A DNA stretch of 64,000 nucleotides from Candidatus Heimdallarchaeota archaeon (lineage in GTDB: Archaea > Asgardarchaeota > Heimdallarchaeia > Hodarchaeales > Hodarchaeaceae), in assembly GCA_048881705.1 (NCBI GenBank), contig JBHLSH010000007.1, positions 1-64,000 on the forward strand, written 5' to 3'. The notes under the pieces were generated by a model that saw only the letters and a list, made by a program, of their open reading frames with translations, did not search any database and had not been told where the DNA came from. Below are positions 21,927 through 24,563 of this stretch, in pieces. Made by a program: the position numbers and the translations under genes. The first letter of the stretch is position 1. Every line of letters starts with the position of its first letter.

Positions 21927-24563
21927 TCATTGCGTTCTTCGTCTTACAACGAAGAACACTCCTATTGCGATGCTTAACAAGATTGTCCAGATTGTAAAGC
22001 CTGGAGATGTCGATGAAAGAGGATTAATTAAAATGCCAACCTCATAAGAAAAGTATGAACCCGAGATATCATATTTTTCTGCGGCATTACCTCTTTCGTC
22101 CCAAGCTTTTAGATACCACAGCACGGTCGTCATGTTTGCCTGCTTCGGGATGTTTGTATGCCATATGCCAGGCTGACCTTGATACTCAACTAATGGTGTA
22201 GATCTCCAGCTTGTCCCGTTATCAGTAGAAAAGTAGAGTACCGCATCTTGAACACCACCTTCTTCCTCAATTCCAACTGTGACAAGGGGGCTATCCTGTG
22301 GAGTAGGGCCTTTAAAATCCTGATCCGTATCGTAAATAATTGTCGGATATCCAAGCTTTGGAGGGACATAATCAACTGTATCATGTTCTATAGGGCTGGA
22401 TGTGGCACAAAAGTTAGGTTCCGTTTGAAAAACGTAAGTTCCGAAGTTCTTGTCGATTCCGACTCTCTGAACAATCGAATCTTCAGGATCGTCATCATGT
22501 ATGGTATAGCTAGTTTTAATACTGTTACCTACGCTAGCTTCTGCGTAAACTTTCGTTTTTAGCGATAACTCCAAAGTTTCCTCAACGTGAACTCCACCTA
22601 ATATAAGTTTGGACCTTGTTTCACTTTGTATACCTATTGTGATGGATGAACTTACGGTATTTGTGTTTGTAATCTCATGAGAATTGATATAGGTTCCTGC
22701 TCCATCGGTGACCAAAAAGCCACTAATCCATTCAACTTGATCATTCGGATAGTCTATATGCACTGGGTTTAATTCTCTCCAACTTTCGGGGGCATTTGCA
22801 TCACTCAGATAGGCTTCCGCGTCTCGTAATATTCCCCACCAGAGATGAGGATCATAATAAACCTCTGTTCCATTATAATACTCCACATAATGACTTGTGA
22901 GTACATACCTAAATTTCCATATTTCGCCCCAATAACGATCGCCATAACCAGGACCTATATGGTCAACAGAGGTAGAGGAATCAGACGAGGACAAAAAGGT
23001 GCTATCAGAAATATCAAACCTCGCATCAAATCCTAGACTAGCCTCCAAGGATAAAGAGAGCTTTGTAGAAGCTTCTATACCAGTTTCAAAAAGCCCGAAC
23101 AGATCGAATTTTTCTTCAACGCCAACTTCCAATCCTAGGGTGACACCAGCAGTAATTTCACACCCGATTCCCAACGATATGGTTGACGATTTTTCATAAC
23201 TGGATGTACTACCATCGCCATTGGGATCATGAAGAATTAGATACAATTTCCTACCTTGATCAATTTCATTTTGTTGGAGGATTTCAAATCGAGCTGCGAC
23301 CTTTTTATCAAAAGTAAAGTAACGGGTATCACTCGAGATTTCAGTATCGAATTCATTATATCCTCTTAAAATCGCTTCAATCAGTCCATAAAAGCTATCG
23401 TTAAAAAGAAAAGCAACAGTGCCTGAACTCGGGACTGTCCCCATAGCTATGCCATTGAGTTCTAGTTTCACATACTCAACATCAGTTCCCTTTGAATACG
23501 TGAAATTAAACTCCACGGGGTCGGTTCCCGGACCATAAGTGATCGAACTATTCATGCTTGGGGATTCCCAAACGACTTCCACAATCAATCTCCTAAAGAC
23601 AAAAGCGCGAGTATCACTGGCTACCTCATTATTATACAAGTTATACCCCCTTAAAGTTGCAAGGACTGATCCATTGAAATCATCAAACACAAATGTAACC
23701 ATTCCAGGGCTGGTTACTTCACCCATATCCGTAGTATTGAAAAACATCTTCACAGTATGGATATCATATCCTTTGGAAAATGTGAAATTAAACCGTGCTA
23801 AACCTGTAGCACTGAAAGAAATGGTATTACCGTTAGAAGGCGTACCCCAATTTAAATCATAGTCTAACCTTCTAAAACTGAAATAACGGATATCAGAAGC
23901 AACTAATACCCCAGTTTTATATCCGTTCAAACTAGCTGATATGGGTGAACCATCAAAAGAGGCTCCGTCCAAAATGACTTGAAAAGTTTGTATACCCCCA
24001 GTTAAAATATCAAAATTCTGATTACCAACGCGTAGTATTGCATCATCCAGGTTATCATAATTCCAATCAAAATCAAATATTACATTATTATCTATAGGCC
24101 CAAAGGTGATTTCTGTCCCATCAATCGGACTAATCCATGAGATCCCGGAACTTTCAGAAACAGTGTATGAATAATATGATGTCGAGGAGGGCAACAGGAA
24201 CAAGAACAGTTGGGAATCTACCTCGCCCTCTACTCTAATTCTATATTCAACAAAGTCGCCCAAATTGCCTGCTGGGATAGTAGCTCTGTAGGTCCCTCCA
24301 CCCATACTACTCATAGAGATTCCAACTTCTGCTCCGCCATTAAACTTGTAATAAACGTTTCCTATGATATAGCTGGGATACCGACTGTACCCCACAGAAA
24401 CGTAAACTTCTACACTTTCTCCTTGATCAGGAATCGTAGGATTTCTCCAAACGCTTTCAATCCACATTTCTCCCGGTATCGGAGCGCGAGTTGCAGAAAT
24501 TGCAAGTTGAGTTAAAACGATAAACGCGATTGCCCACCATATCTTTTTCATTGATTTTGACAT
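21927..24563 (-). CDS. Surface-anchored multidomain protein: Ig/FN3-like domains plus a central beta-hairpin-rich (possible pore-forming) domain
   Basis: Signal peptide, three ~95-aa internal repeats ending SD(I/T)RxFxF, LHDPNGDG domain with two long alternating-pattern hairpins, C-terminal SPGF-TM-RRR. Confidence 0.75.
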   Translation of the reverse strand: MSKSMKKIWWAIAFIVLTQLAISATRAPIPGEMWIESVWRNPTIPDQGESVEVYVSVGYSRYPSYIIGNVYYKFNGGAEVGISMSSMGGGTYRATIPAGNLGDFVEYRIRVEGEVDSQLFLFLLPSSTSYYSYTVSESSGISWISPIDGTEITFGPIDNNVIFDFDWNYDNLDDAILRVGNQNFDILTGGIQTFQVILDGASFDGSPISASLNGYKTGVLVASDIRYFSFRRLDYDLNWGTPSNGNTISFSATGLARFNFTFSKGYDIHTVKMFFNTTDMGEVTSPGMVTFVFDDFNGSVLATLRGYNLYNNEVASDTRAFVFRRLIVEVVWESPSMNSSITYGPGTDPVEFNFTYSKGTDVEYVKLELNGIAMGTVPSSGTVAFLFNDSFYGLIEAILRGYNEFDTEISSDTRYFTFDKKVAARFEILQQNEIDQGRKLYLILHDPNGDGSTSSYEKSSTISLGIGCEITAGVTLGLEVGVEEKFDLFGLFETGIEASTKLSLSLEASLGFDARFDISDSTFLSSSDSSTSVDHIGPGYGDRYWGEIWKFRYVLTSHYVEYYNGTEVYYDPHLWWGILRDAEAYLSDANAPESWRELNPVHIDYPNDQVEWISGFLVTDGAGTYINSHEITNTNTVSSSITIGIQSETRSKLILGGVHVEETLELSLKTKVYAEASVGNSIKTSYTIHDDDPEDSIVQRVGIDKNFGTYVFQTEPNFCATSSPIEHDTVDYVPPKLGYPTIIYDTDQDFKGPTPQDSPLVTVGIEEEGGVQDAVLYFSTDNGTSWRSTPLVEYQGQPGIWHTNIPKQANMTTVLWYLKAWDERGNAAEKYDISGSYFSYEVGILINPLSSTSPGFTIWTILLSIAIGVFFVVRRRTQ

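Follow-up and report, generated by a model that had tools for sequence, protein, structure and literature searches.

In the pore forms of MACPF/CDC proteins and gasdermins, each subunit contributes two hairpins, that is, four strands, and known β-pore-forming toxins are commonly fused to lectin-like modules. The aerolysin/ETX-MTX2 proteins, such as epsilon toxin (1uyj, 3zjx) and Cry51Aa1 (4pkm), are elongated all-β molecules with a single insertion hairpin. Bacteria and their filamentous phages have outer-membrane proteins named secretins, in which long hairpins serve as staves of a giant oligomeric barrel. A different kind of extracellular protein is the S-layer glycoprotein of Haloferax, an array of Ig-like domains held by a PGF-CTERM anchor. 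Little is understood of envelope construction and partner-cell attachment in Asgard archaea, a question that bears on models of eukaryote origin. Here we analyzed a stretch of 64,000 nucleotides (the window; positions 1 to 64,000 of contig JBHLSH010000007.1) from Candidatus Heimdallarchaeota archaeon and focused on a gene encoding the 878-residue anchored cell-surface protein P0001, which a preliminary description had proposed to be a contact-dependent pore former. We class P0001 among modular surface proteins with an anchor; its central module, the twin-hairpin domain, is new. We tentatively prefer to view this domain as a scaffold for packing or self-association within an adhesin-like envelope protein, not as a toxin.

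A twin-hairpin domain in a membrane-anchored surface protein

The features of P0001 are compiled in Table 1. An identical database entry (P0002) comprises 874 residues, so translation may start four codons downstream. The basic N-terminus is followed by a hydrophobic helix and probably represents a Sec signal peptide with a putative cleavage site at its end. The extreme C-terminus consists of SPGF, a transmembrane helix, and RRR, and it passes the NCBIfam model NF033507 (Loki-CTERM) with 22.5 bits at a cut-off of 19.9 (residues 854–876). The orthologs share this signal, which is the top one of five Loki-CTERM signals in the genome, and a hydrophobic segment plus basic tail terminates 52 of 85 homologs. 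Both the signal peptide and the SPGF-transmembrane-RRR anchor named in the preliminary description were thereby corroborated. A search with PF09721 revealed no exosortase or archaeosortase in the genome, which is 91% complete and distributed over 155 contigs, so that a divergent enzyme or an assembly gap is possible. P0001 contains nine N-x-S/T sequons and is probably glycosylated.

The full-length protein was modeled with AlphaFold on the basis of an 85-sequence alignment, resulting in a mean predicted local distance difference test (pLDDT) score of 84.4, and the model was compared with known structures by VIA-align. The N-terminal β-sandwich aligned with the Ig-like domain of 5ak7 (Z 12.2, root mean square deviation (rmsd) 2.6, 104 aligned residues) and with the CBM56 structure 5t7a (Z 10.1); PF22184 (CBM_56) matched 5 of 25 relatives. 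The spacer repeats each terminate in xD[IT]R[YA]F[STV]F and resemble FN3-like modules (Z 9.4–10.8 for residues 138–232 and 236–326). On the C-terminal side of the twin-hairpin domain, the β-sandwich aligned with CBM21 of 7qf7 (Z 10.6, rmsd 2.3, 97 aligned). It harbors an Asp-box-like S-x-D-x-G-x-x-W motif near residue 780, and weak BNR matches occur in 7 of 25 relatives. This small domain is the only one that separates the twin-hairpin domain from the C-terminal anchor. The discrete domain of about 290 residues that had been outlined amid Ig-like repeats (window positions 22,380–23,260, residues 435–728) was clearly recovered, with flanks that fold as Ig/FN3/CBM-like sandwiches.

The sequence LYLILHDPNGDG (residues 440–451) lies near the start of the twin-hairpin domain. 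Conservation is concentrated in a core formed by residues 436–452, 526–623, and 690–735, where 29 of 158 columns reach at least 90% conservation, as compared to 1 of 132 in the two inserts. Twelve core residues are invariant (D446, P447, G449, S452, G537, G541, D542, D690, D695, D704, P724, and E726) and about 19 more are nearly so, many of them acidic; this acidic cluster suggests metal binding. The inserts, comprising approximately 65–70 residues each, conserve a pattern rather than a sequence. They contain the two Ser/Thr/Gly-rich, alternating stretches with a central hydrophobic turn that the preliminary description had pointed out. We located these stretches at residues 460–519 and 635–686, and they stood up to an analysis of both the β-moments and the conservation of the tips.

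The hydrophobic moment at 180 degrees reached z values of 5.5 (residues 460–488), 6.0 (residues 492–519), and 4.8 (residues 658–689), and none of 5,000 shuffles attained any of them. The fourth strand (residues 625–655) is weak in P0001, with z = 1.3. The period-two alternation is far beyond chance in three of the four strands, and the top β-moments of the whole protein fall into the hairpin segments. One face of hairpin 1 is composed of V, L, I, F, and A, and the other of G (23%), S, E, and T. In the strand register suggested by the alternation, residues 462–488 and 492–518 would form about 14 cross-strand hydrophobic pairs, continuous in the whole family. Since 14 extended pairs correspond to roughly three times the hydrophobic thickness of a bilayer, this stripe is more readily explained as part of a protein core or interface than as a membrane-spanning element. 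Hairpin 2 is less uniformly amphipathic than hairpin 1. Ser/Thr tracts flank both segments, and the hairpin lengths are nearly constant in the family, varying by a few residues. A distant member of 419 residues, P0111, retains the core motifs and carries a Cys-containing, non-alternating, and non-amphipathic first insert, showing that the core can exist without an amphipathic hairpin 1.

Across 85 aligned homologs, the tips are hydrophobic at positions 488 (100%), 489 (94%), and 653 (98%), with Gly at position 490 (84%). Hydrophobic and Gly tips are retained family-wide, including the bacterial-type members. Much like fusion loops or the loops by which C2 and CDC domain 4 bind membranes, the ribbons might pack face to face and dip their LFG/LGG tips only into the outer leaflet of another membrane or into a hydrophobic surface, tethering a partner cell without forming a pore. 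Such a finger would match the type I topology with its C-terminal anchor, the near-constant hairpin lengths, and the consecutive hydrophobic or aromatic tip residues beside an almost invariant Gly with charged flanks. A finger with level tips should, however, show co-variation of the two hairpin lengths, as a joint barrel might too, but we did not observe it (r = –0.13, using crude anchors), and the domain resides near its own membrane instead of at the distal end. Furthermore, a Foldseek search of predicted viral structures gave no usable match (template modeling (TM) score at most 0.17) and listed no class II fusion protein, and the dockerin-bearing relatives described below lack an obvious membrane target. 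We consider a hydrophobic-tipped finger improbable.

Family range and modular context

An exhaustive HMMER scan of 1.84 billion representatives (50% identity) retrieved 104 proteins with E ≤ 1e-3, of which 52 passed E ≤ 1e-30. The close homologs are named Hodarchaeales, Heimdall, Thor, and Promethearchaeota, and most of the named representatives are Asgard, in line with the host proposed from the sequence at the outset. We found 27 loci in species-representative genomes, all of them archaeal metagenome-assembled genomes, 25 with Asgard names and two designated only as "uncultured archaeon". The host genome carries a single copy of the gene, whose distribution elsewhere is patchy, with 28 positive genomes among the 301 Asgard genomes searched and 6 among 20 others from its own genus. 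Because of this patchiness, P0001 is not the general envelope protein.

Residues 435–730 had no sequence match in Pfam, NCBIfam, or the PDB, and a family profile searched against the PDB sequences matched only the FN3 flanks. No match was obtained by tblastn against plasmids and phages, and the family was not found in the literature on Asgard pore formers, Loki-CTERM, and Asgard archaeosortase surface proteins. As an extracellular module, the domain is genuine and conserved but lacks annotation, and no description of it exists in Pfam, NCBIfam, the PDB, or the literature we searched.

Distant homologs carry the motif pair HDPPGD...GPGYGD. A similar pair, xDPPG...GxxGD, had been attributed to large secreted proteins of Bacteroidota. 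The motif pair is real, and the distant member P0099 carries a Por_Secre_tail of the type IX secretion system (T9SS; 36.6 bits), which is typical of Bacteroidota and bears out this attribution in part. Dockerins occur in the distant members P0095 and P0098. The members with dockerin or T9SS tails are presumably bacterial. Further companion domains in the family are fn3, Big_7, CBM_56, PKD, F5/8 type C, FG-GAP, NosD/β-helix, and Laminin_G, and a sialidase-like CBM was also found in relatives. Other Asgard genomes encode fusions of FG-GAP propellers with the twin-hairpin domain (P0030, P0033, and P0090); the window itself encodes a separate 524-residue FG-GAP repeat protein (62,257–63,831, minus strand). 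A stand-alone short form was not found, the shorter sequences being fragments on contigs of 1–2 kb only, and in 85 homologs the domain typically ends 141–150 or about 245 residues before the C-terminus. Since the domain is always embedded in large modular proteins with modules such as fn3, CBM_56, and PKD, it appears to belong to an adhesin or polysaccharide-handling repertoire.

This arrangement resembles that of modular bacterial adhesins and cellulosomal "X-module" proteins, in that the domain is one cassette among dockerin, T9SS, PKD, Big, and CBM modules. None of the described X modules or adhesin stalk domains, however, matches by sequence or fold; E-G5 of SasG reached Z 4.2 with the three-stranded part of the domain. 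With envelope glycoproteins of the PGF-CTERM type, P0001 shares the signal peptide, strings of Ig/FN3-like domains, N-glycosylation sequons, and the tripartite PGF-type signal, but those proteins lack a twin-hairpin domain.

The order CBM, FN3, central module, CBM, together with the dockerin, PKD, F5/8 type C, and sialidase-like CBM domains of relatives, is also the architecture of a glycan-active enzyme. The twin-hairpin domain could then be a catalytic or ligand-binding module of a CAZyme-like protein, with a His/Asp/Glu/Ser cluster at the hairpin base as the active, sugar-binding, or metal-binding site and the ribbons forming a cleft or platform. The confinement of all invariant and near-invariant residues to the core is compatible with such a site. 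We obtained, however, no sequence match to an enzyme family and no known catalytic fold among the fold matches, which barely covered the core. Long amphipathic ribbons are not known from all-β glycoside hydrolases or lyases. A catalytic or ligand-binding function seems rather unlikely on these grounds.

Fold comparisons and the role of the hairpins

Modeling of the isolated domain with 25 sequences (pLDDT 73.5, predicted TM score 0.56) yielded four strands of 32–36 residues, which form the two hairpins, and three strands of about 20 residues. In the full-length model, the core was predicted with pLDDT values of 85–95, hairpin 1 appeared as short strands (pLDDT 58–65), and a helix (residues 647–655) occupied the tip of hairpin 2. 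The disagreement between the models could reflect either a refolding element or an uncertain prediction. The outcome that would have spoken against a pore former, a closed sandwich enclosing the hairpins, did not emerge from these conflicting models.

With the domain-only model, Foldseek placed secretins at the top (E about 1e-7), but their TM scores were 0.1–0.18; aerolysin, Cry51, and Sip appeared at E values of 1e-3 to 1e-2 with TM scores below 0.1. In a VIA-align comparison with 48,161 representatives, PilQ (6ve2; Z 6.2, rmsd 8.3, 107 aligned) and pIV (7ofh; Z 5.7, rmsd 5.1, 92 aligned) scored best, both beneath the noise level of Z 7–8. VIA-align of the top 1,000 Foldseek chains against the same model, in which the hairpins are extended, resulted in Z 2.6 for 3zjx, 2.4 for 1uyj, and 2.3 for 4pkm, at rmsd values of 10–11 Å. 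The RCD-1 pore 8jyz reached Z 3.5 (rmsd 11.4, 85 aligned). The matches listed by Foldseek and VIA-align for the full-length model were Ig/FN3/CBM and multi-Ig structures, and no VIA row was centered on residues 435–730. According to ESM-Atlas features, the domain was closest to unnamed bacterial clusters (0.95), and the nearest named ones were Aerolysin, ETX_MTX2, and monalysin (0.87–0.89), at a recognition value below the threshold. The homolog P0022 gave no usable match in the same atlas. We treat this likeness as a resemblance of style and not as evidence of kinship.

The twin-hairpin domain shares with aerolysin/ETX-MTX2 proteins the elongated all-β form, the very long strands, a Ser/Thr-flanked amphipathic hairpin, and the fusion to lectin-like modules. 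Unlike these toxins, it possesses two hairpins with about 30 residues per strand, its stripe far exceeds a transmembrane segment, and the protein is anchored to its producer and was never found free. Searches with PF01117 and PF03318 revealed no match in P0001 at E ≤ 1 and none among 25 family members at E ≤ 5, and PF03318 retrieved nothing from the whole genome at E ≤ 0.01. The order of segments recalls MACPF/CDC proteins and gasdermins, with two stretches of about 60 residues, each able to give a long hairpin, separated by about 100 core residues. As in soluble MACPF/CDC forms, part of one segment is helical in one of the two models, namely the full-length one with its low-confidence first segment; the other model is all-β. 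In addition, FGTY at residues 707–710 recalls YGTH of the MACPF signature (Y/W-G-T/S-H-F/Y-x6-G-G), but the GG expected six residues beyond FGTYVF (residues 707–712) is missing. The MACPF and CDC families of Pfam (PF01823 and PF01289) and its gasdermin and Secretin families matched neither P0001 nor 24 relatives, and MACPF/CDC chains, pore forms included, were absent from the fold matches listed. The secretins (pIV, PilQ, GspD, and InvG) gave the best structural matches, albeit with Z values below noise and no sequence relation, and they differ from the C-terminally anchored P0001, whose archaeal host has no outer membrane. Every sequence test of membership in a pore-forming family failed, and the fold scores are insignificant.

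A two-hairpin pore former would assemble into an oligomer on the surface of the producer, and the distal halves of its ribbons would become a barrel in the membrane of a nearby partner cell, prey cell, or vesicle; each subunit would supply four strands, and the CBM/Ig-like modules would mediate target binding. The two Ser/Thr/Gly-rich, period-two amphipathic segments with their Ser/Thr flanks, hydrophobic Gly-containing tips, and the Gly-rich second face of hairpin 1 resemble insertion elements, as does the conservation of their pattern instead of their sequence, but only about a third of the stripe of hairpin 1 would suffice to span a bilayer. Lectin-like accessory modules and a patchy, single-copy gene would be in keeping with a weapon; yet P0001 is tethered one or two small domains from its own membrane, relatives bear dockerins or T9SS tails, and neither a stand-alone secreted form nor an immunity or activator gene was found. 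The two AlphaFold states of the segments and the weak top matches of the extended model to oligomeric barrel staves (secretins, Z 5–6.2) point in the same direction as the named Atlas clusters, which are leads only. They are set against the missing Pfam matches to Aerolysin, ETX_MTX2, and the families named above, a family profile that finds no PDB sequence for the domain, Z values of 2.3–2.6 for epsilon toxin and Cry51 at an rmsd of about 10 Å, and an Atlas signal that was not reproduced with P0022. The tests run neither supported nor refuted the contact-dependent pore former of the preliminary description. Starting from a low prior probability that a new extracellular β domain forms pores, we regard this function as unlikely.

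It is similarly doubtful that the twin-hairpin domain is the founding member of a new cell-tethered, two-hairpin, barrel-forming class in Asgard archaea and bacteria, in which contact would cause an oligomer to drive a barrel or the tips into the membrane of a neighbor. Such a class would enable an Asgard archaeon to open or grip the envelope of a syntrophic partner or competitor. If membrane-active, the domain would represent a new family of archaeal β-barrel-forming proteins; its dependence on contact would be surprising.

We tentatively prefer the scaffold in an adhesin-like envelope protein. P0001 would be exported via its Sec signal peptide and held at its own membrane by the PGF-type (Loki-CTERM) signal. 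Its distal CBM56/Ig-like head would sit on the three FN3-like spacers, with the twin-hairpin and FN3/CBM21-like domains proximal to the membrane. Two long, two-stranded amphipathic β-ribbons would grow from the compact core, which is predicted with confidence and in which the invariant Asp, Glu, and His probably hold a metal such as Ca2+. The aromatic-rich three-stranded sheet of the core would cover the hydrophobic stripes, which would also pack against each other or against the ribbons of neighboring molecules. The outcome would be a rigid pedestal or a lateral assembly at the membrane that presents the distal binding modules, possibly for adhesion. We count for this scaffold the membrane-proximal position of the domain, the absence of a free form, the core-centered conservation, the lack of a partner gene and of any link to a pore family, the housekeeping nature of the neighboring genes in the window, and the existence of P0111 with its non-amphipathic first insert. 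If correct, it would add one defined building block to the Asgard envelope.

Several observations weigh against the scaffold. The Gly/Ser/Thr-rich second face and the hydrophobic Gly tips are unusual for a solvent-exposed finger and typical of barrel staves, and the best fit of the domain-only hairpins is to the barrel-wall sheets of secretins and outer-membrane barrels, although at Z values (5.7–6.2) below the meaningful range. The models conflict over the hairpins, which are extended in one and broken with a helix in the other (residues 453–689), and the burial of the stripes, like metal binding, self-association, and the adhesive role, is an inference. Finally, the patchy occurrence of the gene suits an accessory weapon equally well.

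Features and genomic neighborhood

Table 1. Coordinates of the P0001 gene, its parts, and a related locus (window positions unless a locus is named)
Feature	Position	Strand	Basis
Whole gene, 878-residue anchored cell-surface protein (P0001)	21927..24563	–	one open reading frame
Putative signal peptide, residues ~1–25, basic N-terminus followed by hydrophobic helix	24489..24563	–	sequence reading; AlphaFold helix at residues 2–22
N-terminal Ig/CBM56-like β-sandwich, residues 30–138	24150..24476	–	VIA-align of model
Three Ig/FN3-like spacer domains, residues about 139–424	23292..24149	–	AlphaFold model and VIA-align
Twin-hairpin domain, residues 435–730 (~296), no family match	22374..23261	–	profile searches, conservation
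Predicted hairpin 1, residues 453–525, tip F489-G490-L491	22989..23207	–	model, conservation, β-moment
Predicted hairpin 2, residues 624–689, tip L655-G656-G657-V658	22497..22694	–	models, conservation, β-moment
FN3/CBM21-like β-sandwich, residues 733–846	22026..22367	–	VIA-align of model
Loki-CTERM (PGF-type) sorting signal, residues 853–878: SPGF, hydrophobic helix, RRR	21930..22007	–	NF033507
ESCRT-adjacent locus	L028:7375-11791; same region in L020, L026, L030, L031, L034, L039		two ESCRT-II-type genes (EAP30/Vps36-like, ESCRT-II subunit)

The neighbors of the P0001 gene in the window encode a malic enzyme, a nitroreductase, a pyrophosphatase, and an Arf-like GTPase, next to two unannotated upstream genes on the same strand and an unannotated divergent gene; restriction-modification methylases and metabolic genes lie farther out. 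Clustering of open reading frames across 28 loci revealed no conserved toxin, immunity, or activator partner, and the common neighbors track lineage.

Immediately upstream, P0133 (24,897–25,559, minus strand) is a type I membrane protein of 220 residues that combines a single Ig/HYR-like domain with a signal peptide, a transmembrane helix, and a short acidic tail; four loci retain it at this position. The next gene on the same strand, P0134 (25,606–26,574), encodes an unannotated protein of 322 residues without a signal peptide. A relative of P0134 is located upstream of the twin-hairpin gene in five loci, including L016, whose twin-hairpin domain is only 55% identical. The upstream genes of about 320 codons in two lineages are mutually unrelated, and P0134 is unrelated to the RsmB-type gene found at the same position in another lineage.

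The Arf-family small GTPase (28,292–28,864, plus strand; PF00025, E 2e-28) directly follows an unannotated open reading frame of 514 codons (26,741–28,285, plus strand). Both are transcribed away from the surface-protein gene cluster, and the same block of four genes is present in the three closest loci. The homolog of one Loki-like lineage is situated between an RsmB-type methyltransferase and a PUA protein, next to ESCRT-II-type genes and Vps4. This adjacency probably reflects inherited gene order in that lineage and not a functional link, although the twin-hairpin gene thereby comes to lie among neighbors that function in membrane remodeling.

Elsewhere in the window, a gene on the minus strand (44,454–49,475) encodes a protein of 1,673 residues with a subtilase domain (Peptidase_S8) at residues 245–510 and no Pfam match in the other approximately 1,150 residues. 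Three large restriction-modification methylase genes of the Eco57I/N6_Mtase type (3,977–5,698, minus strand; 7,816–10,389, plus strand; and 32,192–34,537, minus strand) are found within 31 kb.

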